A stretch of 64,000 bases of DNA from Blastomonas sp. (GCF_030373265.1 NZ_JAUCZC010000007.1:65456-129455), one strand, 5' to 3'. Positions 1 through 14,731 are shown, counted from the first letter of the stretch. Translations and numbers: made by a program. The notes: generated by a model not told the origin, from the letters alone.

Positions 1-90
1 CTTCCACCAGAATGACGCAAACCTCGCGAATCCCCTCGACCCCACGGCATGGACGCGTCAGTCTCGCGCCAGAACAAACAGGGGGCATTG

Positions 91-730
91 ATGGTCGCCA
101 TCGTCCAGACCGTGGCGTATCTGGGGCTCGAGGCGCGCAGCGTCGAGGCGCAGGTGCGGATATCGCCGGGGATGAACAAGGGCATCGCGGTGGTCGGCCT
201 TCCTGACAAGGCGGTGGGTGAAAGCCGCGAACGCGTTCGCGCCGCCATCGCCTCGCTGGGTCTGGCGCTCCCTCCCAAGCGCATCACCGTCAACCTGTCG
301 CCCGCCGATCTGCCCAAGGAAGGCTCGCATTGCGATCTGCCGATCGCGCTGGCGATGCTGGCGGCGATGGGGATCATCGATGCCGAATTGGCCAGCGAAT
401 ATGTCGCGGTGGGCGAACTCGCGCTCGACGGACGGATCGCCGCCTCGCCCGGCGTATTGCTCGCCGCGCTGCACGCCTCTGCCACCGGACGCGGGTTGAT
501 CTGCCCGGCGGCGCAGGGGGCGGAAGCGGCTTGGGCGGGCGGCATCGACGTGATCGCTGCGCCCGATCTGCTGACCTTGCTCAACCACCTCAAGGGCAAT
601 GGCCGGCTCAGCCCGCCCAAGCCCGGCATCGCCGAAGCGCCCGCACCGGGCCCCGACCTCAAACAGGTCAAGGGGCAGGAGACCGCCAAGCGCGCGCTCG
701 AGATCGCGGCTGCCGGGGGCCACAACATGG
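91..730 (+). pseudogene. comM: comM/yifB (Mg-chelatase-like AAA+ competence protein), 5' fragment split by island insertion
   Basis: ORF 49..738; the likely start is ATG 91 (MVAIVQTVAYLGLEA...VVGLPDKAVGESRERVRAAI, a typical ComM N-terminus). The frame reaches AAAGGHNM, enters foreign DNA and stops at 736-738. The Walker-A half resumes at 11797. Confidence 0.85.
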
Positions 731-731
731 T
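721..731. other. attL junction core (CACAACATGGT)
   Basis: This 11-mer recurs as CACAACAGGGT at 11788-11798 (10/11 identical). The sequence to its left is comM and the sequence to its right is island DNA. Confidence 0.7.
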
Positions 732-797
732 AAGATAATATACGGTTACACCCATGAGCCGGAGCAGTCTGCAACGGCATGCTGGCAGGAGCCTAAA

Positions 798-1133
798 ATG
801 GGTCGCAAACGCAATGTATGTTATGAAGTAGTGCTTCGTGATGGTGGTGGGGGGTATTGGCTCACGATTGAGCCGCAGCACCGGACATTCTCCGATGAAT
901 TTCTCCTGAGCAAATCCGAGCTACACAGTAGGGCGGTCGCAGTCGTAAGCTCCTTAGGCACGGTCGTCCTGCGAGATGAGACAACCGAAGACGGGTCGGG
1001 TGCTGAACGAACTGGGCGCTATTTTGCTGCCCGCGCACCTTGGGCAAACAACGATTACGCCCCTCCGATCACCGATGATGAACCGACCCTCTTCGATGCT
1101 CGTCTCATGCCTGATTGGTATTATCGACGCTAA
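798..1133 (+). CDS. hypothetical protein (111 aa), first gene inside the island left end
   Basis: Internal ATG at 798 of track ORF 330..1133, preceded by AGGAG with 6-nt spacing. Sequence is MGRKRNVCYEVVLRDGGGGYWLTIEPQ... I recognise no family. Confidence 0.45.
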   Translation: MGRKRNVCYEVVLRDGGGGYWLTIEPQHRTFSDEFLLSKSELHSRAVAVVSSLGTVVLRDETTEDGSGAERTGRYFAARAPWANNDYAPPITDDEPTLFDARLMPDWYYRR

Positions 1134-1136
1134 GCA

Positions 1137-1257
1137 GGGATGCTTCGCATCCCAATTTCAAGCCCCACACCTTTGCACGCGTGCAGCCCCAATTTCCGAC
1201 GTTGTGATCGTATTGGCCTGTATTGAGTGATCCAAAACCCCTAATTTACAGGTATTG
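1137..1257 (+). other. candidate oriT / relaxosome binding region
   Basis: Intergenic region directly upstream of the RHH-T4CP-relaxase operon. It contains hairpin GGGATGC-TTC-GCATCCC (1137-1153), a perfect 12-bp palindrome TGCACGCGTGCA (1174-1185), the 9-bp direct repeat CCCAATTTC (1151-1159 and 1188-1196), and three GTATTG motifs (1210, 1220, 1252). Confidence 0.4.
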
Positions 1258-1268
1258 ACGAAATACAC

Positions 1269-1604
1269 ATGGCCGCCACCACCGTCATTCAGACCCGCAT
1301 CGTTCCGAAGCTTGCTATGCTGCTAGACAGCCGCGCCGCCGAAGCAGGGATCACACGCGCCGAGATGGTCCGCATAATGTTAGAAGCGGCGCTTGATTCC
1401 CCGCAGCCGGTTCGCGCCACAGTGACCGATCCGCTGCTAGGCGAGATCGCTGTAGAGCTGGGTGCGCTCATAGCCCGGGTAGATGCGTGCGAAACCAGCG
1501 CACACAACGCCCATGCCACCGCTCGCCTTGCTGCGCTCATGCTCCTACCCGCCGAGCGCCAGCAAGCGTTCATTGACAAGCTCAAGCAGGCCATTCGCTC
1601 ATGA
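1269..1604 (+). CDS. ribbon-helix-helix (CopG/MobC-like) relaxosome accessory protein
   Basis: 111 aa. The N-terminus TRIVPKLAMLLDSRAAEAGITRAEMVRIMLEAAL fits a beta-strand plus two-helix RHH pattern. Its stop overlaps the T4CP start (ATGA at 1601-1604). Confidence 0.6.
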   Translation: MAATTVIQTRIVPKLAMLLDSRAAEAGITRAEMVRIMLEAALDSPQPVRATVTDPLLGEIAVELGALIARVDACETSAHNAHATARLAALMLLPAERQQAFIDKLKQAIRS

Positions 1605-3412
1605 GCCGTGCGACTGAACAGGCGGGGCGTGGCCATGCCATCGAGAAATGGCGCTTGCGTTCGACGCTCATTCTGTTGCGCACAGGCGTAGCCTTCAGCC
1701 TGCTGGGCATGGTGAGCGGTGTAACGTTGGTCGGCCTCGCATCAAACGATACAGACCGCCAGCACGCAATCTCATTCACGAAAGCTAAAGCCTCACAGCA
1801 TCTGGATGCTGCCATACAGATTGATCCCCGTCGTTCCGTTGCAGCGCCCACAGTTCTAAATAGAGACGCGCCGGAGCGTATCGCTGCGGTCCGACTCTTC
1901 TCGCGAATGGCCATAGCTGGCGGCCTCCTCGGACTTCTGCTCGGCATTGGTGGGGTTACGCTTTTGCGGGGCCACTGGATTAAGGCGGCCCAACACGCAG
2001 CTCTCGATCAAGTGCTGCGCGGCAACCGGGTCGCGACCGCCGATGAGCTCACGAGGCTTGTCATGAAGAACAAGCCGTCAGAACCTTTGCGCATCGGAGG
2101 GGTGCCAATCCCGCCGCAAGACGAGGCTCGGCATTTCTTGGACATTGGTAAATCGGGCACCGGCAAAACCAGCGTCTTGCAAGATCATCTCAGCCAGATC
2201 GTAGCCCGCGGAGAAAATGCACTAATCTTCGATCCGGATGGCAGCTACGTTGAACGCTTCTTCCAACCCGAACGCGGCGATATAATTCTGAATCCTTGGG
2301 ACGGACGCAGCCATCGCTGGAACATGCTCGCCGACATCGCCAGCTTGGACGATGCCCACCGCATCGCCGCCATCTTGCTCCCCAAGCCCTCGAAAGTTGG
2401 CGAAAGCAATTTCTGGTTCGATCAAGCCCGAGCCCTGCTGGCCCATATCCTAGATCATACGGCCCACACTGAGTCCGCAAGTTTGGATGCGCTCTCCTCT
2501 ATCCTTAACACCACCACCGCTGAAGATTTGCGCACGATCGTGACTAACACGGCGGCAGCCCGCATTTTCGAGTCGGGGGGTGAACGAGCCACCGCTAGCG
2601 TTCTGTTTATGATGACAATGGCCGCCCGCACCGTCGCAACGCTAGCCACCATCCCGGAGAACGCACCTACCTTCAGCTTCGACTGCTTTTACGCTGGCCT
2701 CGCCGAACATGAAGGCCCGAAGCCAATGATTTTCTTGGCGGTACCGCGTCGATATCGCGACGCTGGCGGACCTATAATTGCGGCGTGGATAGATGCGGCA
2801 GCGTCGGCCATCCTTCAGCGCAACCCCGGAGACGCGCCAAAGGCTTGGTTGTTTCTGGACGAGTTAGCTTCACTCCCTCCGGTCCAATCCTTGCTCACTC
2901 TGCTACCAGAAGGCCGCAAGCACCGAGCCTGCGTCGTCATCGCCTTTCAGTCTATCGCGCAGCTGAGACAGACGTATGGCAATGACGGCGCGGAAATCAT
3001 TTCCGGCCAAACCGCCACCCAGTTCATTATGGCACCGGGCGATGCGGCAACTGCTAAGTGGGCTGTCGATCTATTCGGCTCGGCTGAGGTTGAGACCCAA
3101 CGCGCCAGCGAATCCCTGGGTGACGACCCCAAAGCGCACGGGTCACTTGCCATCCACCGCGAGCGCAAAGCCATTGTTATGGACAGCGAAGTCACCAACC
3201 TCGCCACCGGCGAAGGCTTCCTGCGTCTGTCAGGCTACCCAATCGCTCAAGTGCTGATCGCGCCGCCTAAAGCCCTGGACATTATTGCGCCAGCCTTTGT
3301 TCCTGCGCGCCTAACTCCCCGCACCTGTTCAACTTCGTCCTGCAGCGCACCACCCGTGGACGCAGTTCGGATAGAGGACCGCGATGACTGGTTGTCGATG
3401 GGAGGGCTATGA
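1601..3412 (+). CDS. type IV coupling protein (TraG/TraD/VirD4 family)
   Basis: 603 aa with two N-terminal TM segments, Walker A GKSGTGKTS and Walker B-like WLFLDELASLP. It is translationally coupled to the relaxase gene. Confidence 0.8.
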   Translation: MSRATEQAGRGHAIEKWRLRSTLILLRTGVAFSLLGMVSGVTLVGLASNDTDRQHAISFTKAKASQHLDAAIQIDPRRSVAAPTVLNRDAPERIAAVRLFSRMAIAGGLLGLLLGIGGVTLLRGHWIKAAQHAALDQVLRGNRVATADELTRLVMKNKPSEPLRIGGVPIPPQDEARHFLDIGKSGTGKTSVLQDHLSQIVARGENALIFDPDGSYVERFFQPERGDIILNPWDGRSHRWNMLADIASLDDAHRIAAILLPKPSKVGESNFWFDQARALLAHILDHTAHTESASLDALSSILNTTTAEDLRTIVTNTAAARIFESGGERATASVLFMMTMAARTVATLATIPENAPTFSFDCFYAGLAEHEGPKPMIFLAVPRRYRDAGGPIIAAWIDAAASAILQRNPGDAPKAWLFLDELASLPPVQSLLTLLPEGRKHRACVVIAFQSIAQLRQTYGNDGAEIISGQTATQFIMAPGDAATAKWAVDLFGSAEVETQRASESLGDDPKAHGSLAIHRERKAIVMDSEVTNLATGEGFLRLSGYPIAQVLIAPPKALDIIAPAFVPARLTPRTCSTSSCSAPPVDAVRIEDRDDWLSMGGL

Positions 3413-6219
3413 TGGTAGCTAAGCCCATCAAACTCACCGACCCCGCTGCGGCTTATAATTATTATCAGGCCGACGATTATTGGAGCCGCGAAGCTGCAGG
3501 CCAGTGGAAGGGTCGCGCTGCGCGGGCCCTCGGTTTAGAAGGGGAAGTCGACCCCGACCAATTCATGAGCCTGCTCAAGGGGCAGTTGCCAAATGGCACC
3601 CAGATCGGCACTAGCCGCAAAGGCGTGCGCGAGCATACCCCGGGTTTCGACCTCACCATGAGTGCACCCAAGTCAGTATCGGTAATAGGGCTAGTCGCGG
3701 GTGACCGCCGAGTCATCGACGCACATGCTCGCGCGGTCGATGTTGCTCTAGGATATGCCGAACGTCATATCGGCGTTACCCGTATTCGCAATGGGGAGAC
3801 GGTCGAGCGGATCGCTACGGAGAAGCTGGCCATCGCGCAATTTTTGCACGTAACCGCCCGCGAAACCGAAAACGGCACGCCTGCGCCGCAGATCCATTCG
3901 CACAACGTCATCCTAAACATGACTCAGGACTGTGACAGCAACTGGCGCAGCCTTGATGCACGTGACCTCTATCGCCTCCAGAAGCACATTGGCGCGGTCT
4001 ACCATATGGAACTTGCAGCCGAATTGCGGCAGCTTGGCTACAGCGTAATCGTCGCGCCCGATACCACCTTTGAGATTGATGGCGTGCCCGAGCATGTGTT
4101 ACGCGCCTTCTCGCCCCGGTCCCGTCAGATCGAGGCCGCCTTGGCCGCACGAGGGCAGACCCGCGCCAATGCATCAGCAGCCGAGAAGAGCGTCATTGCG
4201 CTGAAAACCCGCGCACCCAAGCGAACTGTCAATTATGCCACGCTCGCCGCCACTTGGCGCACCCAAGCCGATGAACTAGGACTCGACGAAGACGCCCGCC
4301 GTGCCCTCGTCGATGCAGCCGAAGCCCAAGCGGTCGGCAGACCCAATCTGGGCACAATCCGACGCATGGCCGAAGCAGACAAGGCCGTTTCTTTCGCCAT
4401 GGCCAAGCTCTCCGAGCGCCAGGCAGTGTTCACTGCAGCCGATCTTGAACGTGAAGCAGGGCAAAAAGCTAGCGGCGCTGCAACTCATGGTGATGTGGTC
4501 GCCGCCATCGCTCGAGCCGAGCGAAAACAGGCCCTTATGGTTCGTGCCGCCCCTCGCATGGCAAAGGGCATTGTAGGCTATACAACCCGCGAGGCCGTCA
4601 TCACGGAACAGGCAATGCTCGCGATGGAGACGGAAGGACGCGAAACTGGCAAGCCGATAGTTGGACTGGTTAGGGCTGAGGCCGCTATCGCATCGGCTGA
4701 GCGCCGTTCAGCCCACGCTTGGACCGAGGGACAAAAGGTGGCAACTCGGCAGTTGCTCCTGTCCTCGTCCGCCGTCACTGGCCTGCAGGGCCATGCCGGA
4801 ACTGCCAAGACGACAACCGTTTTAAAGACGGTCGCCGAAGCAGCACGCACCCAAAAGAAAACGGTGCGCGCTCTTGCCCCCACCGCAACGGCTGCCGATG
4901 TATTAGGTCGCGCGATCAAGGCGGAACCTACAACGGTCGCGAGGATGCTATCCCATTCAAGTGAATTGTCCGAACCAGGTACCGAGGTCTGGATCGTGGA
5001 CGAAGCTTCTATGCTGTCAGCGCGCGATGCCCGGCGCCTAATTGCCCGCGCCCGCGATGCTAAGGCTAAACTAATTCTGGTTGGCGATGTCGAACAGCTC
5101 GGCTCGGTGGAGGCAGGGCGCGCATTTGGGCAGCTTCGAGAAGCGGGCATGGAAACGGCCGTGATGGACGAGATCGTGCGCCAATCAAATCACCACACCC
5201 GGAAGGCAGTCGAGGCCATGCTGGCAGGCGATGCCTCGGCGGCTTTCGATGCGCTCGACGCTGGCGGTGGGTCGATAGTCGAGCATGAAGAAGACGATGT
5301 GCGCCATGCGCTGATGGCGAGGGATTTTGTCAAGCTGTCGCCTGAGGAGCGCGCGGCCACTATAGTCTTGGACACAACCCGCGAGGGCAGGCAGCGACTC
5401 ACGGCATCAATAAGATTTGCCCTAGTTAGAGACGGCACACTCGGAGAGCAGGCCATGATCGCGAAGGTGCTAGAGCCTGTTGGTTTCACCCGCGCCGAAG
5501 CGCGCAACGCTGCAAGCTATCAGCCAGGGCAGATCGTGACGTTCCGTAAAGGGGCCGGTAAAGGGCAGCCGCGCCCCGGCATCGGATATAAGGTGGACGC
5601 TGTTGATGCCGACGCCGGAACCGTGCGGCTGATTGGCGAGAAGGACACGCCGATCATCTGGTCACCGGCGATGTCAGGCGGCGATAGGGCTGAAGCTTTC
5701 GTTGAAGTTGAACAGGAATTCCGTGCTGGTGACCGCATACAGTTCACCCGCAACAACTATACTGCCAATCGACTCAACGGCCACACTGCTACGGTGGTAG
5801 AACTTGATCCCATCGGCGGCTCGATGGTTGTAGAGCGGCAGCGCGATGGAAAGCTCCAGCGGCTCGACCTGCATCATTTGGCCGATCGCTATGTCCGTCA
5901 TGGTTGGGTGCAGACCATCCACGCCGCCCAAGGGGCAACCTCTGACCGGGTTATGGCGCATATGGAGTCTTTCCGGACCAACACTGTGGACACTCGAGCC
6001 GCCTACGTCGCCATTAGCCGGGCGAGGTCCTATGCAGTGCTCTACACCGATAGCAGGGCCAAACTCGCGCAAGCTCTCGGCTCGCGAGACGTTGCGCAAG
6101 TGGGAGCGATCGATGAATTGGATACTACGAAAGGCCAGTTAAAAGACGCTGCTCGAAAAAGCGCCGAAATTTCTTACACAACGAACAAGCCAACGTTTAA
6201 CGAGGCATATTCAGTTTGA
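3409..6219 (+). CDS. MOBF-type conjugative relaxase with C-terminal RecD-like helicase (TrwC/TraA family)
   Basis: 936 aa. The N-terminus is a TrwC-like relaxase domain (AAAYNYYQADDYW, histidine motif PQIHSHNVILN). The helicase part has GHAGTAKTT Walker A and VWIVDEASML Walker B. Confidence 0.85.
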   Translation: MMVAKPIKLTDPAAAYNYYQADDYWSREAAGQWKGRAARALGLEGEVDPDQFMSLLKGQLPNGTQIGTSRKGVREHTPGFDLTMSAPKSVSVIGLVAGDRRVIDAHARAVDVALGYAERHIGVTRIRNGETVERIATEKLAIAQFLHVTARETENGTPAPQIHSHNVILNMTQDCDSNWRSLDARDLYRLQKHIGAVYHMELAAELRQLGYSVIVAPDTTFEIDGVPEHVLRAFSPRSRQIEAALAARGQTRANASAAEKSVIALKTRAPKRTVNYATLAATWRTQADELGLDEDARRALVDAAEAQAVGRPNLGTIRRMAEADKAVSFAMAKLSERQAVFTAADLEREAGQKASGAATHGDVVAAIARAERKQALMVRAAPRMAKGIVGYTTREAVITEQAMLAMETEGRETGKPIVGLVRAEAAIASAERRSAHAWTEGQKVATRQLLLSSSAVTGLQGHAGTAKTTTVLKTVAEAARTQKKTVRALAPTATAADVLGRAIKAEPTTVARMLSHSSELSEPGTEVWIVDEASMLSARDARRLIARARDAKAKLILVGDVEQLGSVEAGRAFGQLREAGMETAVMDEIVRQSNHHTRKAVEAMLAGDASAAFDALDAGGGSIVEHEEDDVRHALMARDFVKLSPEERAATIVLDTTREGRQRLTASIRFALVRDGTLGEQAMIAKVLEPVGFTRAEARNAASYQPGQIVTFRKGAGKGQPRPGIGYKVDAVDADAGTVRLIGEKDTPIIWSPAMSGGDRAEAFVEVEQEFRAGDRIQFTRNNYTANRLNGHTATVVELDPIGGSMVVERQRDGKLQRLDLHHLADRYVRHGWVQTIHAAQGATSDRVMAHMESFRTNTVDTRAAYVAISRARSYAVLYTDSRAKLAQALGSRDVAQVGAIDELDTTKGQLKDAARKSAEISYTTNKPTFNEAYSV

Positions 6220-6220
6220 T

Positions 6221-6350
6221 ACGCCTGTGTAGATTAATTTGACGGCCCGCTCCTGCCGTCATTTAACCCGACCGCCGGTTGATACGGAAATCGAGATGGC
6301 GCTTGTGTGTGGGCTGCCAACAGCCATTTGGTTTGAGCGGAGCGCCAATT
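6221..6350 (-). ncRNA. candidate structured ncRNA downstream of the dual-RT operon (possible DRT3-type ncRNA)
   Basis: On the minus-strand RNA an outer stem GGCGCU/AGCGCC (6298-6303 pairs with 6341-6346) encloses hairpin GGCUG-UUGG-CAGCC (6312-6325). An unpaired CACACACA tract follows (6304-6311). Further hairpins follow, including GACGGC...GCCGUC (6241-6260). No ORF is present. Confidence 0.4.
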
Positions 6351-8429
6351 TCAATATACGTCACGACTACGCTTCGCGTCCAGTTCCTTTGTGAGATCAA
6401 ATTTGTCGCCCCAGGCCGTGAACCAATGACTGTTGACCGCCTGAAGCTCTGCCAACTGAGCGGCATCCAAACCGAAGATGGCACCCGCAGAATTTTGAGT
6501 AGCGACCGACACGTAAGGACAAACAACTAGGTCCAGAAATAGCATCAAAGCCTCAGCATCATTTGGACAATGCGTCTTGACAAAATCGAGCTTCGCAAGA
6601 GCCTGAGCTTCAATAAAGGCGCGAAGTTTTGCATACCTCACTTTATTCTTTACGTATGACAAGAGAACGGTGATTGAAAAGTGATTTAAAAATTTCTCGC
6701 GCAGATAAACTCCCGATTTCTCATCCCATTTTATAAGGAAGTGGCTAGCTACAGCCTCTTCCGGAAGCCAATATTCGCGACCAATTCCAGATAGCACTAT
6801 CAGCAGATACAAGCTCTCAATCTCTCTGTGAGAACTCATTTTATTCTTAGCCAGCATCTCGCGAATATTATCATGCACGAATTTGAAAAGCAGATGCTTG
6901 AGCTCATGAGGAAACTGACGACTGGTTAAAAAACCGACTGCTGTCGCCACCATTCGACACATTCTAATAGTATGATTCACTTTCGGACTTGCTGAATAAG
7001 CAAAGAACGAAAACTCGAGAAGAGCTATAATAGCATTTACCATTCGGCGGCGATCAATGTGATCCCCATCACTAGCCAAATAAGCCCCGATAATTATGTC
7101 AACTTTGTTTTCAATAATTGCGAACGTGTAATTCAATAGATCAGAGTATTCTACTTTCGACTCTTTTATTACTGTCTTGTAACCAACAATTAATCGATTG
7201 GCGTTTAAATTACAGCTAAATCTCTTAACAATCTCGCCCCCAGTATCACTATTATCGGTCTCTTCCACAGACGGGTCAATAACTGAATTCATCAAGGTCG
7301 AAATATGCTCTTTCGCAATTGTAATTTCAGTTATTATGGGCTTAGGATATACTTTTAACTTTGCGGGATTTATCGCTAATTTTTTCGATTTCAAAATTTC
7401 TTGAAGCTCCTCAATGACGTGAAGCTCCGTCGATTTATCATTATAGAAAACAAAAAAATCATCGACGTATCGGAAAATCTCATAATGGCTTTTGTGCTTT
7501 AAATTTGCCCGATCGAAAAGAGCGCGCTCCAGTTCAACGTCAACAGACTGAAGAATGATTTCGGCAAATATTCTAGAGAATTCCGGGCCTATTACAATTC
7601 CATTAGTCTCATTCTGATTTAGCTGCTGCATCACAGCATCAAAACGACCGCCAAACGTAGATTTTGATCCATCGAGATTAAACTTCGTCTGATTTTTTCC
7701 CATTACAGCCCAAGGCATTGAATGGGTGTAAATGCTATCAAAGCATTTACTTATATCTATCTGCATCATTGCGTCATATTTTTTTTCGCAACGATGATAT
7801 TTATAGGATTCAAAAAACTTGTGTATATTACGATATTTTTGATATACAAAATAGGAACCGATCTGCTCGTATTCCCGGCCATATTCTTCTACCCCGCCTG
7901 AGATACTTTCAAGATCTTGGTCGTGAAGCTTGTCCTTAAAGAATGCATATCGCGATACTGAAACTGGTCGACGAATAGAAAAGGAGCTTAGCGATGTATA
8001 ATATGTGATCATCGCACTGTGGCGAGCATAAAATTCGGCAATACGAACCTGATTACGCGGATGAACAACACTAAGAGTCCGCCCCTCAATTTTATGCGCA
8101 ACCCGAAAATTAAATGGTATTGTTTCCATTCTGCAGGATTTTAACGGCACACTGCGGCGAGTTATTGGCTTAACAGCCCCCCACTCTTTCTGTGTAGTTG
8201 TTTCCACGACAACATTTTTCTTTACGCCGAATATTAGCTTGATGGTTCTTTCCAGGCCAGGCCCGCGATCTATCCATCGAACCCGGCCGTCCTCGATCTC
8301 AACCTTATGATCCCGTAAAAATGCAAAAAATCCGCGATTTGTGAAAGTTGGTGGAACTTCGAACGGCAGCATATCGGTCATCACTGCACGCTGCCTACGG
8401 TGCGTTAGAGCTACACTTCGTTTAGACAT
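6351..8429 (-). CDS. reverse transcriptase, large (692 aa), Drt3b/UG8-like or AbiA-like defence RT
   Basis: RT palm motifs QIDISKCFDSIYTH, GIVIGPEFSRIFAEIIL, IFRYVDDFFVFYND (catalytic YVDD) and KLAINPAKLKVY, plus a long C-terminal alpha-helical extension. N-terminus has LPFEVPPTFTNRGFF. AT-rich. Its start overlaps the upstream RT gene stop by 8 nt. Confidence 0.8.
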   Translation of the reverse strand: MSKRSVALTHRRQRAVMTDMLPFEVPPTFTNRGFFAFLRDHKVEIEDGRVRWIDRGPGLERTIKLIFGVKKNVVVETTTQKEWGAVKPITRRSVPLKSCRMETIPFNFRVAHKIEGRTLSVVHPRNQVRIAEFYARHSAMITYYTSLSSFSIRRPVSVSRYAFFKDKLHDQDLESISGGVEEYGREYEQIGSYFVYQKYRNIHKFFESYKYHRCEKKYDAMMQIDISKCFDSIYTHSMPWAVMGKNQTKFNLDGSKSTFGGRFDAVMQQLNQNETNGIVIGPEFSRIFAEIILQSVDVELERALFDRANLKHKSHYEIFRYVDDFFVFYNDKSTELHVIEELQEILKSKKLAINPAKLKVYPKPIITEITIAKEHISTLMNSVIDPSVEETDNSDTGGEIVKRFSCNLNANRLIVGYKTVIKESKVEYSDLLNYTFAIIENKVDIIIGAYLASDGDHIDRRRMVNAIIALLEFSFFAYSASPKVNHTIRMCRMVATAVGFLTSRQFPHELKHLLFKFVHDNIREMLAKNKMSSHREIESLYLLIVLSGIGREYWLPEEAVASHFLIKWDEKSGVYLREKFLNHFSITVLLSYVKNKVRYAKLRAFIEAQALAKLDFVKTHCPNDAEALMLFLDLVVCPYVSVATQNSAGAIFGLDAAQLAELQAVNSHWFTAWGDKFDLTKELDAKRSRDVY

Positions 8430-9771
8430 GCCGCCAAGCCTTTACAATTACCTTAAGCTCATCTGCGCTAAAATTATGAAATCGTCGCTGCTCGAATCCA
8501 GATTTAAACCGATACCGGTTCAATGAATTCCTCAGTTTCGGCCGCTTTATCTTTAAGATCTGCTTTTTTAGCAGTGTATCTAGAGGATCGTATTTTTTTA
8601 GATTTGTGATAATTGGACTATTATAGTATATGCCAGTTGTCGCGCTCGACTTACTATTCTTCAATCGCGCGTTTCCTGTCAGAAATTTCAACCTAGCTAC
8701 GATCTCGCGGTAGGCCTGACGTTGTCTCGTGGGAACGTCCCGCCAATACTCGGCGAATGCGGCATCAACCCTACTCCTCAGTCTCTCAATCTTTGCATCA
8801 CTGGGCTCAATTTCTAGTGTTCTCAATGTTGCTGTATAACTGTAACCAAGATAATCAAACTTCTTTGGAGGACCCTTGTCTCCCAAATTAAAATCTTGCG
8901 TCTTTTTTACGTTGTTGGTCAAACTATGCTTATTAAGTATCTCTAGCACCAAGTCCTTGTAACTTCCGCTAGCTGCACCGACCGGAGGCCTTGCAAAAAC
9001 TGCAAAAATGTCATCCACATAGCGGCAGTAGAGGACAGCTCCAGGTAACTCTCTGATAGCTCGGTCAACGGGTCGGAGAAATAGCTCGGCCAAATAGGCG
9101 CTAATACCCACACCGCGGGGAATTCCTTTTGGGCTACCGCTGATTTTCCCGTAGGAGGTAAATATCTGACGGATGAATCGCTTGGACGATGAACTCAGCA
9201 ATTGATCGCTATCGAGTGCTCTATATAGCTTATCTCGATCAATGCTCTCGTAGAATTCAGAAACGTCTGTCCGGACAAATTCGAATGGAAATCCCGTTCC
9301 AATCGTATCACGAACGCGACACGCAAGTTCATGCCGATTTGACTGCTTAACTTTATAAATACGATAGATATTCCACTGCAGCTGCTTCACCACAAAGAAC
9401 GTTTCAGCTGTGCTATCGATGCAGTAGACGGGCTTTCCATTCGGCCCGGTCTTTTGAGAGAGCGTCAATCTAAATTCAGGCTTGGCGACCTCAGCGCTGA
9501 GCTTTTCCATCTCGACATCGACGGCATTCGACTTCGTGGCTTTCAATTCGGCAAGCTCGGCCTTTATTTTCGACTCTGCCGTCTCAAATACCGAAGCAAC
9601 CAAGGATGCTTTGCCCTTCCTCAATTTTCTGAGTTCGGCAACCTTATCTCGAACAGCACCAGTCATTGGGCAAAGATGCGGAAAGTATCTGCCGACGACA
9701 TCCAGCCCCTTGCGATTTTCCCTGTCGAATATTCGCCGGAAATTTTCGGCCGTGAACATCTGATCTAGCAA
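8422..9771 (-). CDS. reverse transcriptase, small (449 aa), Drt3a/UG3-like defence RT
   Basis: RT motifs RTDVSEFYESIDRDKL, GIPRGVGISAYLAELFL, LYCRYVDDIFAVFA (YVDD) and FDYLGYSY. Track start is TTG at 9771, with GGGGGA about 8 nt upstream. An alternative ATG lies at 9759 (MFTAENFRRIF). Confidence 0.8.
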   Translation of the reverse strand: MLDQMFTAENFRRIFDRENRKGLDVVGRYFPHLCPMTGAVRDKVAELRKLRKGKASLVASVFETAESKIKAELAELKATKSNAVDVEMEKLSAEVAKPEFRLTLSQKTGPNGKPVYCIDSTAETFFVVKQLQWNIYRIYKVKQSNRHELACRVRDTIGTGFPFEFVRTDVSEFYESIDRDKLYRALDSDQLLSSSSKRFIRQIFTSYGKISGSPKGIPRGVGISAYLAELFLRPVDRAIRELPGAVLYCRYVDDIFAVFARPPVGAASGSYKDLVLEILNKHSLTNNVKKTQDFNLGDKGPPKKFDYLGYSYTATLRTLEIEPSDAKIERLRSRVDAAFAEYWRDVPTRQRQAYREIVARLKFLTGNARLKNSKSSATTGIYYNSPIITNLKKYDPLDTLLKKQILKIKRPKLRNSLNRYRFKSGFEQRRFHNFSADELKVIVKAWRHV

Positions 9772-10043
9772 CTAGCCGTCCCCCATAATATCACGGCTTT
9801 TAACCGCCGTTCGGCCCTTAGTCTCCACGCATACGCTGCCATGCTCGAATAAGGGACGCCAGCTAAATACACATTTCCCGTCAGATTGAAGTCAGTTTCC
9901 CCGGGAGCCACCCGGAAGCTAGCTGAATGTCAAAAAGTGAGATGGCGCCCCTCACAGCCAGCCGCACTTGCAGCGATCGGCGCGAGCCCTCTGGCTCCAG
10001 GCTTTAGCCCTGGATTTCTGTAAGCACCGCTAGCCGTTTCTGA

Positions 10044-11756
10044 TCACGTGTCTTCCCGCCTTGCTGACCTGCGAGCAGCCAGCCCCTTTTGGAGGACGCC
10101 CTTTATGGTCCGTAGCTGACGCGGGCTTAGGCCTTCGCGTGACAATCGCCGTCCGCTCACGTAAAAATCTAGCGCAATACTCGTCGTTTTCGCGTCGATC
10201 ACGACCGTCCGAACACCTGATTTAAAACGAATGCCGACCCTTCGGGCTTTGTGATGGAAACTCATTTTTTCAACTAATTCGGAGATAGCCACGCGAACTA
10301 TAGACCGCGCCGGAAATCTAACATTCTCATCAGAGGAGTGGATTTCGTTTCTCAATACTTCAATTCGTTTTGCGTGCTCATCTGGCGAAACAGCGCCGCG
10401 CGCTTGAACGAGCGATGCGTTCAAATGGGCAATGAGCCCCTCTTGCGCATCGAACAATTCGATCATTTTCTTGTATTTTTCCAGCGTTTCTTCACGTCGC
10501 ATGCTAATATGCGTCTCAAGCGCGCTATCTGCGCGAGCACGTAGTCGTTCGAGTTCTAATTTTGCTATGGCGCAATCATGTGCAATATTGGCAGCTTGAC
10601 GCGGTGCGGCAAAATGAGCGTCACCAACAGCATCTGAAAGAATCGCATTGAGCACGCCTTGTTCGACTGACGAGTAATTGAACCGAACGTTATTCTTACA
10701 TTTGCCTCCGTGGTCTTGAATAATGCCGCGCTGCATCGCATCGCAGACAAGATAGTCCTCGTAAACGACACGACTATCTGCCCGCTTCTTCTGCCCTTTT
10801 GATCTTAAGGTCATCTTAGCACCGCACCCAGCACAGTATGCCAGGCCAGAAAAGAGATTAGCCAGGCGCCGACCCTGCCCCATATTTAGCCGAGCCTTAT
10901 CTTGCATACTAACCCTCGCACGGGCGTAGAGGTCGGCGCTGATAATCGCGGGGTAATAGTTTTTAATAGGGTCGCCAACTAGTGAACGTTTGCCACTACC
11001 CGACTTCTTGCCTAGTTGAAATTCACCTAGCACGGCTACGTTGTTCAATATCTTTTGAATGTAAGAAGCATGCCAAGCCTGTGATTTTCCAAACGTTGGC
11101 ACCTCCTCTTCGTTCAAACGGCGTGCAATATGATGCTTCCCAAACCCTTGCGCTGTCTCTTCGAAGATACGGACAACGACCTGCGCACGGTCTGCAATAA
11201 TTTTGAAACCCTTTCGTCCCTCACCCACGAGCAACCAAGCCGGCGCTCTGGACGTGAGGATGACATTCTCGCCAGCAAGAATCCGCGCACGCTTGTCGTC
11301 CCATGACGCTGTAATGCGCTCACTCTTTTTCAACGACTCGCGGTGAGCAAGATCGGCCTTGACCACCAGCTCGATTATGGTCGCCATGTCGAGATTATCT
11401 TGCCGATATTGTCGGTCCCCCTCGACGGTTGCTACGATCACCCCGAGGCTTGTGATTTGCTCCAACCAAGTGAAGACCTTTTTCGGCTCTTCTCGGGATA
11501 GGCGGTCCAGGTTCTCGACCAGCAACACGACCCCGTCTTTGAATTCCCCATCCTCTATTCGGGCCTGAATATGCGACATTTTGCCTGCCCGCCGGTGTCC
11601 TCCAGTGAATGCCGAAACCCCCTCCTCTATGATCTCCTCGACAATTTTCCACCCACGCACGCTTGCATGCTCGCGGCACCTTTCGAGCTGGCGGACCTTG
11701 GATGAACCGGCTGACTGTTCTGCACTGGACCAGCGCACATATAGTATGGTATTCAT
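10044..11756 (-). CDS. large serine recombinase (island integrase)
   Basis: Track ORF 10044..11924 runs across attR into comM antisense. The real start is ATG at 11756 (MNTILYVRWSSAEQSAGSS, resolvase catalytic-Ser motif). A recombinase domain, Cys-rich zinc-ribbon region (CAGCGAKM...) and coiled-coil tail follow. Confidence 0.85.
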   Translation of the reverse strand: MNTILYVRWSSAEQSAGSSKVRQLERCREHASVRGWKIVEEIIEEGVSAFTGGHRRAGKMSHIQARIEDGEFKDGVVLLVENLDRLSREEPKKVFTWLEQITSLGVIVATVEGDRQYRQDNLDMATIIELVVKADLAHRESLKKSERITASWDDKRARILAGENVILTSRAPAWLLVGEGRKGFKIIADRAQVVVRIFEETAQGFGKHHIARRLNEEEVPTFGKSQAWHASYIQKILNNVAVLGEFQLGKKSGSGKRSLVGDPIKNYYPAIISADLYARARVSMQDKARLNMGQGRRLANLFSGLAYCAGCGAKMTLRSKGQKKRADSRVVYEDYLVCDAMQRGIIQDHGGKCKNNVRFNYSSVEQGVLNAILSDAVGDAHFAAPRQAANIAHDCAIAKLELERLRARADSALETHISMRREETLEKYKKMIELFDAQEGLIAHLNASLVQARGAVSPDEHAKRIEVLRNEIHSSDENVRFPARSIVRVAISELVEKMSFHHKARRVGIRFKSGVRTVVIDAKTTSIALDFYVSGRRLSREGLSPRQLRTIKGVLQKGLAARRSARREDT

Positions 11757-11787
11757 TTGTAACGATTTATCATAAGGAGTAGCTTGA

Positions 11788-11798
11788 CACAACAGGGT
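11788..11798. other. attR junction core (CACAACAGGGT)
   Basis: Partner of 721-731. The sequence to its right is comM, with GTG ATG GTC GGG CCG CCG encoding VMVGPPG. Confidence 0.7.
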
Positions 11799-12669
11799 GA
11801 TGGTCGGGCCGCCGGGCGCGGGCAAGTCGCTGATGGCCTCGTGCCTTCCTGGCATTCTGCCACCGCTGACCCCGGAAGAGGCACTCGAAGTCTCGATGGT
11901 CGCATCGGTCGCAGGCACGCTCACCGACGGCCGGATCAGCCGCGCGCGCCCGTTCCGCGCGCCCCATCACAGCGCCTCGATGGCGGCACTGGTCGGCGGT
12001 GGGCTCAAGGTGCGCCCGGGTGAGGTCAGCATGGCGCATCTGGGCGTGCTGTTCCTCGACGAACTGCCCGAGTTTCAACGCACCGTGCTCGATTCGCTGC
12101 GCCAGCCGCTCCAGACCGGCGAGGTCAGCGTCGCGCGCGCCAATGCGCACGTCACCTTTCCGGCGCGGGTGCAGATGATCGCAGCGATGAACCCGTGCCG
12201 TTGCGGGCACCTGGGTGATCCGGCGCTCGGCTGCTCGCGCGCGCCGCGCTGCGCTGCCGACTATCAGGCCAAGGTGTCGGGCCCGCTGCTCGACCGCATC
12301 GACCTGCATGTCGAGGTCGAGGCGGTGACCGCTGCCGACCTGACCCTGCCCCCGCCCGCCGAGGGCTCGGCCGAAGTCGCCGCCCGCGTCGCCGCCGCCC
12401 GCGCGCTGCAGACCGCGCGCTACGCCGATATCAAGGCGCGCACCAATGCCGAGATCGACGGCGAGGCGCTGGAGCGGTTCGCGACCCCGGATGAGCCAGC
12501 GCGGCAGCTATTGGCCCGCGCCGCCGAAGCGATGCGGCTCTCGGCGCGGGGGTATACGCGGGTGTTGAGAGTAGCGCGCACAATCGCGGATTTAAGCGGC
12601 GCGGAAACTGTGGGCCGGGTGCAGGTGGCGGAGGCTTTGAGTTATCGGCGAAGGGCGCCGGTGGGGTGA
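11797..12669 (+). pseudogene. comM/yifB 3' fragment (AAA+ ATPase and C-terminal domains)
   Basis: Starts directly with (V)MVGPPGAGKSLMA Walker A. Further motifs are GVLFLDELPEF Walker B and the C-terminal ARGYTRVLRVARTIADL, all typical of ComM/YifB. It has no N-terminal domain of its own. Confidence 0.85.
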
Positions 12670-13642: not shown

Positions 13643-14731
13643 ATGGCGACGGCTGACCCGTTGACTGCGGCAGATGCTGCGGGTGCGAAATCCAAAAGTG
13701 ACAAATATGTTGCGGCCGCGAACAGCAAGCCGGTCAACCTGGCGCTACAGGGCGGCGGTGCGCACGGGGCGTTTGCCTGGGGGGTGCTCGACCGATTGCT
13801 CGAGGATGGGCGGCTCAAGTTCGATGCGGTGAGCGCGACCAGCGCCGGCGCGATGAACGCCACTGTGCTGGGCTATGGCCTGACCATCGGCGGCGCCGAC
13901 GGGGCGCGCGAAGAGCTCGAGAAATTCTGGAAGAAGATCAGCGACGAAGGCGCCAAGGGCCCGCTGCAGCCATCGTGGATCGACAAGGCGATGGGCAACC
14001 ACAGCCTCGATTTCAGCCCGGCGTTCCTGATGATGGACATCCTCTCGCGGGTGATGTCGCCGTACGAGCTCAACCCGTTCAACCTCAATCCGCTGCGCGA
14101 TGTCCTGCAAGGCGCGGTGGATTTCAACGTGCTGCGCGAGGGCTGCCCGATCAAACTGTTCCTCTCGGCCACCAACGTGCGCACCGGCAAGGTCCGCATG
14201 TTCGAGAACCACGAGATCGGCCCCGATCAGGTGCTCGCTTCGGGCTGCCTGCCGTTCATGTTCCAGACCATCGAGATCGATGGCGAGGCCTATTGGGACG
14301 GCGGCTATATGGGCAACCCGGCGATCTTTCCGCTGATCTACGGCAGCCAGACCAACGATGTCGTGATCGTCCATATCAATCCGCTCAACCGCGAGGAAAT
14401 CCCCAAGACCGCCAAGGATATCCTCAACCGGATCAACGAGATCAGCTTCAATTCCAGCCTGATGCGCGAGATGCGCGCAATCGCGTTCGTCACGCATCTG
14501 ATCGATGACGGCCAGCTCAACGACGACAAGCACCGCCGGATGCTGATCCACTCGATCCAGGACGAGGTCTTCATGGAAAGCCTTGGCGTCACCAGCAAAT
14601 TGAACCCCGACTGGGGCTTCATGAAGAAGCTGCGCGATGTCGGCCGCGCCTGCGCCACCAAATGGCTCGACGAGCATTTCGACGATGTCGGGGTCAACTC
14701 GTCGACGGACATCAAATCCTTTTTCCTGTGA
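13643..14731 (+). CDS. patatin-like phospholipase/esterase family protein
   Basis: 362 aa with oxyanion motif LALQGGGAHGAFAWGVL, nucleophile elbow SATSAGAMNA (GxSxG variant) and DGGYMGNPA catalytic Asp motif. Confidence 0.8.
   Translation: MATADPLTAADAAGAKSKSDKYVAAANSKPVNLALQGGGAHGAFAWGVLDRLLEDGRLKFDAVSATSAGAMNATVLGYGLTIGGADGAREELEKFWKKISDEGAKGPLQPSWIDKAMGNHSLDFSPAFLMMDILSRVMSPYELNPFNLNPLRDVLQGAVDFNVLREGCPIKLFLSATNVRTGKVRMFENHEIGPDQVLASGCLPFMFQTIEIDGEAYWDGGYMGNPAIFPLIYGSQTNDVVIVHINPLNREEIPKTAKDILNRINEISFNSSLMREMRAIAFVTHLIDDGQLNDDKHRRMLIHSIQDEVFMESLGVTSKLNPDWGFMKKLRDVGRACATKWLDEHFDDVGVNSSTDIKSFFL

Follow-up and report, generated by a model that had tools for sequence, protein, structure and literature searches.

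The RNA encoded on the minus strand at 6232-6346 of the window (i.e., the entire 64,000-nt stretch of DNA analyzed) is, in all likelihood, the template RNA of a DRT3 (UG3+UG8) anti-phage system, an assignment that draws on its sequence and on analogy with the E. coli system characterized by others. The preliminary description of the window had proposed a DRT3 ncRNA in the gap between drt3b and the convergent relaxase gene, and the canonical position of the gap, its match to a covariance model (R1) and its conserved motif and helices all agree with that proposal. In a set of about 100 homologous loci, the motif and the helices that flank it show conservation and covariation. The role of the ACACAC motif and this kind of RNA are already published (in 2022 and 2026). 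The new material presented here is modest, i.e., a pseudoknotted RNA architecture and a candidate promoter embedded in the drt3b coding sequence; the RNA is otherwise an ordinary member of its kind and the gain is incremental. The assignment would settle the single component of this complete DRT3 system that is not a protein-coding gene and that current pipelines and Rfam leave unannotated.

In a previous survey, 300 nt downstream of UG8 were taken for analysis, and the accessible text of that paper describes group-specific structures with a globally conserved and exposed 'CACACA'-like motif in 17 of 20 UG8 groups, for which a function as a recognition site was speculated (Mestre et al., 2022, NAR, PMC9226505). 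RIP-seq revealed that the DRT3 ncRNA is encoded downstream of drt3b (Wang et al., 2026, 10.64898/2026.05.04.722794). The same study found that mutation of the ACACAC loop of EcoDRT3 abolished both defence and poly(dTdG) synthesis, that purified Drt3a required the ncRNA, dGTP and dTTP, and that Drt3b made poly(dCdA) without RNA or any other nucleic-acid template (10.64898/2026.05.04.722794). The statement in the preliminary description that DRT3 makes GT/AC repeat DNA is correct and matches these results. As relayed in the reviews PMC13314766, PMC13213688 and PMC13434031, Deng et al. (Science 2026) reported a 6:6:6 complex of Drt3a, Drt3b and ncRNA, and the cryo-EM account given in PMC13434031 places A108CACAC113 of the 130-nt RNA in the Drt3a active site. 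Two stem-loops frame the template in DRT2, DRT3, DRT9 and DRT10 (10.64898/2026.06.29.735271). It should be noted that in Table S3 of 10.64898/2026.05.04.722794 the coordinates of EcoDRT3a and EcoDRT3b seem to be swapped relative to the protein lengths and that the ncRNA coordinates fall inside one of the listed genes; the ncRNA sequence given in that table maps 16 nt past drt3b in E. coli genomes.

In the window, drt3b lies immediately downstream of drt3a, with an overlap of 8 nt (Table 1). Drt3a matched its PADLOC profile (E 4.9e-115) and PDB chain 9z6y_A, 'Drt3a' (E 9.8e-26), contains an RVT_1 domain and has an intact YVDD at 251-254 when aligned with the Drt3a of E. coli and Zymomonas. It would be the enzyme expected to copy the ncRNA template. 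Drt3b likewise matched PADLOC (E 5.8e-195), RVT_1 and PDB chain 9z6y_H, 'Drt3b' (E 1.2e-59), and its sequence clusters at an identity of at least 90% with WP_300881063.1 of Blastomonas sp., which is annotated as Drt3b. The functional residues of EcoDRT3b identified by Wang et al. (2026, 10.64898/2026.05.04.722794) are all kept in the window Drt3b, and E24, R117, D225, F230, R286, the YVDD and Y692 are invariant in an alignment of 7 homologs that share 29-73% identity. As judged from the protein sequences, the locus is a bona fide Drt3a/Drt3b pair.

We noticed that the reported Drt3a anchor of the EcoDRT3 5' stem-loop, Y419 in PDB 9Z6Z, corresponds, after correction for a His6 insertion in the PDB chain, to the tyrosine in the C-terminal WKYV. 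As a point against the assignment, this position is His448 in the window Drt3a (AWRHV; codon at about 8428-8430 on the minus strand); it is also His in E. coli Y5 (GWSHV) and is Tyr in Zymomonas.

Table 1. Features of the DRT3 locus and its surroundings. Nucleotide positions are those of the window; Drt3b residues are numbered along the protein.
Feature	Position	Strand	Details
T4CP (TrwB coupling protein)	1601-3412	+	
TrwC relaxase	3409-6219	+	
DRT3 ncRNA (predicted)	about 6346 to 6232-6241	-	roughly 106-115 nt; conserved core 6241-6346 (106 nt)
P1 (clamp, outer stem)	6341-6346 with 6298-6303	-	GGCGCU with AGCGCC; 5/6 pairs change both sides (A4)
Pseudoknot	6335-6340 with 6247-6252	-	CCGCUC (directly past P1) with GAGCGG (P4 loop); 6/6 pairs covary
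P2 hairpin	6312-6325; 6321-6325 with 6312-6316	-	GGCUG-UUGG-CAGCC; 5/5 pairs covary (A4)
Probable template tract	6304-6311	-	CACACACA; single-stranded between P2 and P1; ACACAC = 6305-6310
P3 hairpin	6267-6295; 6285-6295 with 6267-6277	-	CUCGAUUUCCG / CGGCGGUCGGG, loop UAUCAAC
P4 hairpin	6241-6260; 6255-6260 with 6241-6246	-	GACGGC-AGGAGCGG-GCCGUC; 9/9 pairs covary (A4)
Candidate sigma-70-type promoter	6353-6382	-	-35 TGGACG 6377-6382; 18-nt spacer; -10 TATATT 6353-6358
drt3b	6351-8429	-	UG8; Class 1 reverse transcriptase; alpha-repeat domain; 692 aa
drt3a	8422-9771	-	UG3; Class 2 reverse transcriptase; 449 aa; TTG start
Large serine recombinase	10044-11924	-	
Mg-chelatase/ComM(YifB)-like ORF	11797-12669	+	5'-truncated; Pfam match from profile position 26
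Patatin-like phospholipase ORF	13643-14731	+	outside presumed element boundary
Drt3b dA gate	E24		EcoDRT3b E22
Drt3b active-site contact	R117		EcoDRT3b R71
Drt3b catalysis	D225 and YVDD 321-324		EcoDRT3b D182 and YVDD
Drt3b active-site contact	F230		EcoDRT3b F187
Drt3b dC switch	R286		EcoDRT3b R241
Drt3b priming tyrosine	Y692 (last residue)		EcoDRT3b Y666

The gap comprises 130 nt between the stop codon of drt3b (6351-6353) and that of the convergent relaxase gene (6217-6219), and its minus strand reads AAUU-GGCGCU-CCGCUC-AAACCAAAU-GGCUG-UUGG-CAGCC-CACACACA-AGCGCC-AUC-UCGAUUUCCG-UAUCAAC-CGGCGGUCGGG-UUAAAU-GACGGC-AGGAGCGG-GCCGUC-AAAUUAAUCUACACAGGCGU. The coordinates that had been given beforehand were exact for both strands of the outer stem, the hairpin GGCUGUUGGCAGCC and the CACACACA tract, all on the minus strand, as well as for the GACGGC-N8-GCCGUC hairpin, an additional ACACA at 6226-6230 and both stop positions. 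The statement that the gap held no ORF does not stand in the strict sense, given that two mechanical ORFs of at least 60 aa, 6263-6526(-) and 6279-6530(+), reach the gap from inside drt3b. What does stand is that neither of them looks like a gene: both start inside drt3b, and the substitutions seen in this region are compensatory rather than codon-like.

A scan of one genome per species recovered 18 loci whose Drt3b proteins were 63-78% identical to that of the window. In all 18, a block of ~110 nt that begins 4-5 nt past the drt3b stop was conserved far above the protein. Across these 18 genomic loci and about 20 close relatives from metagenomes, Drt3b was just 60-78% identical and the nucleotide similarity dropped off just past the GCCGUC strand of P4; blastn comparison with 45 related loci placed the similarity from 6347 down to 6231-6241. 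A profile-based scan of metagenomes yielded 80 more loci, with Drt3b identity down to 35%. Of the metagenomic loci, 70 extended 98 nt or more past the drt3b stop (Drt3b identity 35-77%), and all 70 had ACACAC on the sense strand 24-68 nt past that stop. The additional ACACA at 6226-6230, which had been noted as a second copy of the motif, falls outside the conserved block and was not retained as part of the element.

The covariance model R1 was built from 37 close relatives with nested helices only. In the window it had a single match, 6227-6350(-), with a score of 122.1 bits (E 1.5e-29; next best 8.2 bits), a score that is partly circular since the window sequence is in the seed. Independent support comes from 46 non-seed loci: R1 matched directly past drt3b in 46 of 53 divergent loci, including those of E. 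coli Y5 and a Zymomonas plasmid. The order of elements in the R1 class, which the window shares, is P1, the pseudoknot strand, an optional P2, CACACA, the second strand of P1 (P1'), P3 and P4. Searches against Rfam 15 returned nothing overlapping 6221-6350 at E <= 10 and no gathering-level match anywhere in the window, and megablast of the locus against plasmids returned no match. The preliminary description had also named 9772-10043 as a place where the ncRNA might map instead. When these 272 nt upstream of drt3a were compared with about 100 loci by blastn, none of the loci showed similarity, and the RT strand of the segment lacks ACACAC; this alternative site was rejected.

Thermodynamic folding of the single sequence was uninformative as evidence. 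The minimum free energy (MFE) of the gap was -39.7 kcal/mol with a z-score of -0.90, and 32 of 200 shuffled sequences folded equally well. Thus, the helices cannot be called real from the window sequence alone, and the verdict on them must come from related loci. The MFE structure lacks the outer stem and the hairpin named in the preliminary description and prefers an alternative nested pairing. The nested structure derived by comparison has an energy of -37.0 kcal/mol with the pseudoknot left out; the pseudoknot duplex could contribute up to about -9.5 kcal/mol, which would make the comparative structure competitive with the MFE.

Comparative analyses supported five helices by covariation, i.e., P1, P2, P3, P4 and the pseudoknot. 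In alignment A4, which holds 46 divergent sequences, 92% of the cells were paired, compared with 39-50% when the partners were slid by 1-3 columns, 36 of 37 pairs had compensatory double changes and none of 500 shuffles reached any of the observed measures, although the nested helices are favoured in this comparison because the nested part of the alignment was fitted to the model. The pseudoknot provides an independent test, given that this helix was absent from the model that made the alignment. Its cells in A4 were paired at 90%, versus 36-56% when slid, and its compensated cells numbered 47, versus 12.7 +/- 5 in shuffles. Of the helices that had been read from the sequence, covariation in A4 upheld P1 (the outer stem), P2 (the hairpin that precedes the template) and P4 (the GACGGC hairpin); the long hairpin P3 and the pseudoknot had been missed. 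The look at homologous loci that had been suggested as a check thus found both conservation and covariation.

The 3' strand of P1, AGCGCC, abuts the 3' end of the template and forms the clamp, or 3' anchor. P2, which is paired at 100% in alignment A3, lies immediately 5' of the template and is a candidate 5' template-boundary anchor; it is absent from a subset of the divergent loci and hence cannot be a universal boundary element. Both P1 and P2 are nearly invariant in the close subfamily and are uninformative there for that reason. P3 is present in the MFE and centroid folds, and both sides changed at 9 of its 11 pairs in A3, which consists of close relatives, and at 11 of 11 in A4. In the loop of P3 (6278-6284), a motif is kept (UAUAUCAAU, GUAUCAAUC, CAUAUGCAU, CCUAUGCAUGG) across RNAs that are otherwise very divergent, and its conservation in such divergent RNAs suggests a sequence-specific protein contact.

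Two further pairings were rejected. An AACC/GGUU pairing, which the preliminary description had included, is present and 88% paired but has zero compensatory changes and did no better than shuffles; the GGG of this proposed pairing covaries instead with the base of P3. Slid or shuffled controls did as well as a closing helix at the 3' end (GGGU/ACCC; GGUUAA/UUAAUC in the window).

A scan for consensus sequences located a candidate ncRNA promoter at the end of drt3b, where the final T of the candidate -10 element is the first base of the drt3b stop codon. The start predicted from it, at about 6346, coincides with the first base of P1. Of 83 DRT3 loci, 55 share this arrangement, compared with 1.6% of 7-nt windows elsewhere in drt3b, and the penultimate Val codon (Val691) is GTA in 41 of 41 close relatives, compared with 15% GTA among the Val codons gene-wide, but this evidence is confounded by the conserved C-terminal peptide of Drt3b (ELDAK..S.EVY). 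These observations suggest that the ncRNA may have a promoter of its own that overlaps the drt3b coding sequence at the codons of the priming tail; processing from an operon transcript is also possible. The ncRNA would then be made either by read-through of the operon or from the promoter that lies within the 12 terminal codons of drt3b.

At the other end, many relatives have a terminator-like U-run past P4. The window locus has no U-run or terminator past P4, and the 3' end of its RNA is uncertain (6232-6241) because P4 is not terminator-like there. The U-runs of the relatives, together with the location of the gap between convergent stops and the terminator-like score of the P2 complement on the plus strand, are what would be expected if the region between drt3b and the TrwC relaxase gene contained only transcription terminators or 3'-UTR stabilizers with an incidental CA repeat. 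However, the downstream genes differ in every locus, so the conservation tracks drt3b rather than its neighbour, and the motif is found in 70 of 70 loci. In addition, five covarying helices with a pseudoknot go far beyond the needs of a terminator, and on the minus strand of the window a proper U-run is lacking past both P4 and P2. An explanation by terminators alone is barely credible.

For the DRT3 template RNA, the fold suggested by the comparative analyses would consist of a 5-6 bp clamp, P1, that encloses the pseudoknot strand, P2 and a single-stranded C-ACACAC-A, with P3 and P4 coming after it. The 64 kb window contains (CA)4 a single time, both strands counted, ACACAC is invariant in alignments A1 and A3, and the unpaired probability of the tract in the ensemble is 0.72-0.94, which bears out the earlier reading that CACACACA is left single-stranded between P2 and P1. 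By analogy with EcoDRT3, it is very probable that poly(GT) DNA is copied from the exposed tract. The proposal that a CA repeat beside a clamp helix serves as template is likewise supported by the literature on EcoDRT3 and by the conservation observed here.

It is conceivable that the RNA belongs to DRT3 and that its CA tract serves as a protein recognition or attachment site, or as a scaffold, rather than as a template. A recognition or binding role was what Mestre et al. suggested in the accessible text of their paper (PMC9226505), the ncRNA is also a scaffold in the 6:6:6 complex as relayed from Deng et al., and the RNA architecture found here is unlike that of the class tested experimentally. 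In contrast, the EcoDRT3 motif is reported to lie in the Drt3a active site and its mutation to abolish poly(dTdG) synthesis, and in the window the motif has a stem on either side, an arrangement identical to that of other Class 2 template RNAs. Moreover, the residues by which Drt3b specifies the complementary (CA)n strand are retained in the window protein, which makes sense only if (TG)n is also made. A CA tract without template function is thus very improbable.

If the tract is the template, and as suggested by homology with the E. coli DRT3, Drt3a would bind the RNA and, with a stem on each side of ACACAC, hold this motif in its active site. Drt3a would then copy the tract repeatedly, with slippage and realignment in a telomerase-like manner, to produce poly(dTdG). 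Drt3b would be primed from its C-terminal Y692 and gated by E24 and R286. Formation of the poly(dTdG)/poly(dCdA) duplex and a trigger linked to RecBCD/Gam are known from the literature on a different DRT3 subgroup.

The DRT3 genes lie between the TrwC relaxase/TrwB pair and the large serine recombinase gene, which abuts the ComM-like ORF (window 1-11950). This arrangement resembles one end of an integrative conjugative element that has entered comM of a sphingomonad-like host, with DRT3 as cargo. Such a position at the end of a conjugative element could also suit a decaying or inactive copy whose RNA owes its conservation to nothing more than recent descent. However, neither ORF is truncated, all catalytic, gate and priming residues are intact, and the RNA fits the family model at 122 bits with every helix intact. 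Furthermore, relatives of the locus are spread over many alpha- and beta-proteobacterial genera, and the compensatory changes among them indicate purifying selection. The chance that the copy is decaying appears very small.

As far as the accessible text of Mestre et al. (PMC9226505) goes, the RNAs of its groups 1-17 are encoded, like the window RNA, on the strand of UG8/drt3b and no more than 300 nt downstream of it, and they likewise expose CACACA in group-specific structures with little sequence similarity between groups. No defining difference between the window RNA and these groups emerged from this comparison.

The EcoDRT3 ncRNA of E. coli ECOR12 is 161 nt long by RIP-seq (10.64898/2026.05.04.722794) and 130 nt in the cryo-EM complex relayed from Deng et al. 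(PDB 9Z6Y/9Z6Z). In both EcoDRT3 and the window, the ncRNA is located downstream of drt3b, the key residues of the homologous partner proteins are the same, and a single-stranded ACACAC adjoins, or almost adjoins, the 3' strand of the closing helix on its 5' side, with a stem-loop immediately 5' of the motif. Identity between the proteins is 29% for Drt3a and 29% for Drt3b, and R1 scored at best 2.5 bits against an ECOR12-type locus (L021, E. coli 13P460A), with no sequence similarity detected. The template is 3'-proximal in EcoDRT3, at about nt 113 of 161, and 5'-proximal in the window RNA, at about nt 37-44 of ~110, or nt 36-43 when counted from P1. The extra stem-loops are inside the closing helix in EcoDRT3, whereas in the window RNA they (P3 and P4) lie past it. 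The terminal hairpin of EcoDRT3 is a plain terminator with a GAAA loop, whereas the P4 loop of the window RNA forms a covarying pseudoknot. The predicted fold of the ECOR12 ncRNA (z = -3.0) has a long stem-loop directly 5' of the template, the 3' strand of the closing helix 3 nt past the template, two more stem-loops inside the closing helix and then the plain terminator.

Given that the RNAs lack detectable similarity and place the template differently, the transfer of the mechanism rests on the motif, its position and protein homology. Assignment of the window RNA to the ECOR12 subgroup (Mestre subgroup 9) was considered and rejected, as there is no R1 match and the template is near the opposite end. 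Nevertheless, both classes combine a single-stranded ACACAC with a clamp helix and with a stem on the 5' side of the template, and hence have the same functional core. In the ECOR12 class (L021, L104 and L106), we also observed that UGCGAU/UGCGAA past the 5' clamp strand is complementary to UUCGCG, the apical loop of the stem-loop that precedes the template. This pairing may be the counterpart of the window-class pseudoknot; the three sequences offer no variation for covariation.

The RNA of E. coli Y5 (L019, NZ_CP013483.1) has the same architecture as that of the window, with an identical P2, GGCUGUUGGCAGCC, followed by ACACAC and then P1. Its pseudoknot is fully compensated (UCAGGC/GCCUGA, compared with CCGCUC/GAGCGG in the window), although its Drt3b is just 37% identical, its P3 and P4 differ in sequence and length, and its R1 score is 29 bits. 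E. coli thus has two types of DRT3 with unrelated ncRNAs, the ECOR12-type being found in 13 and the Y5-type in 9 complete genomes. The Y5-type DRT3 (NZ_CP013483.1) belongs to a defence island, where its neighbours are an integrase and a Hachiman system, and the ECOR12-type (L021) is in a P4-like satellite context, adjoining integrase, psu and ogr/delta genes.

RNA of the window class was found in alpha- and beta-proteobacteria, E. coli Y5, and gut and marine metagenomes. Most of the proteobacterial DRT3 loci sampled appear to use an RNA architecture that is unlike the cryo-EM one and has a covarying pseudoknot, and the ACACAC template with its two flanking stems is conserved far past the ~40 sequences of the published model. 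A broader reading is that these RNAs form a widespread, distinct class of DRT3 template RNA, with a 5'-proximal clamped template, a covarying pseudoknot and a promoter of its own in the codons of the Drt3b priming tail; we advance it tentatively, judging it slightly less probable than its opposite. If this holds true, the window class would be a topological permutation of the same functional core, and the published covariance models and cryo-EM structures, all of the ECOR12-type, would miss it. The architecture also offers concrete targets for asking how the boundaries of the template, and the 'zipper' proposed to separate the strands, are built in a second RNA scaffold.

Compared with DRT9, DRT10, DRT2 and telomerase, with which it shares no sequence homology, the DRT3 of the window has its ncRNA downstream rather than upstream of the RT genes, a repeat unit of 2 nt and a second, protein-templated RT for the complementary strand. 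Telomerase RNA has a pseudoknot, as does the window RNA. In all of these systems, a short internal single-stranded template is framed by two anchoring stems (10.64898/2026.06.29.735271), and the templates of DRT9, DRT10, DRT2 and telomerase are reused iteratively to generate tandem repeats, as is proposed here for the DRT3 RNA of the window.
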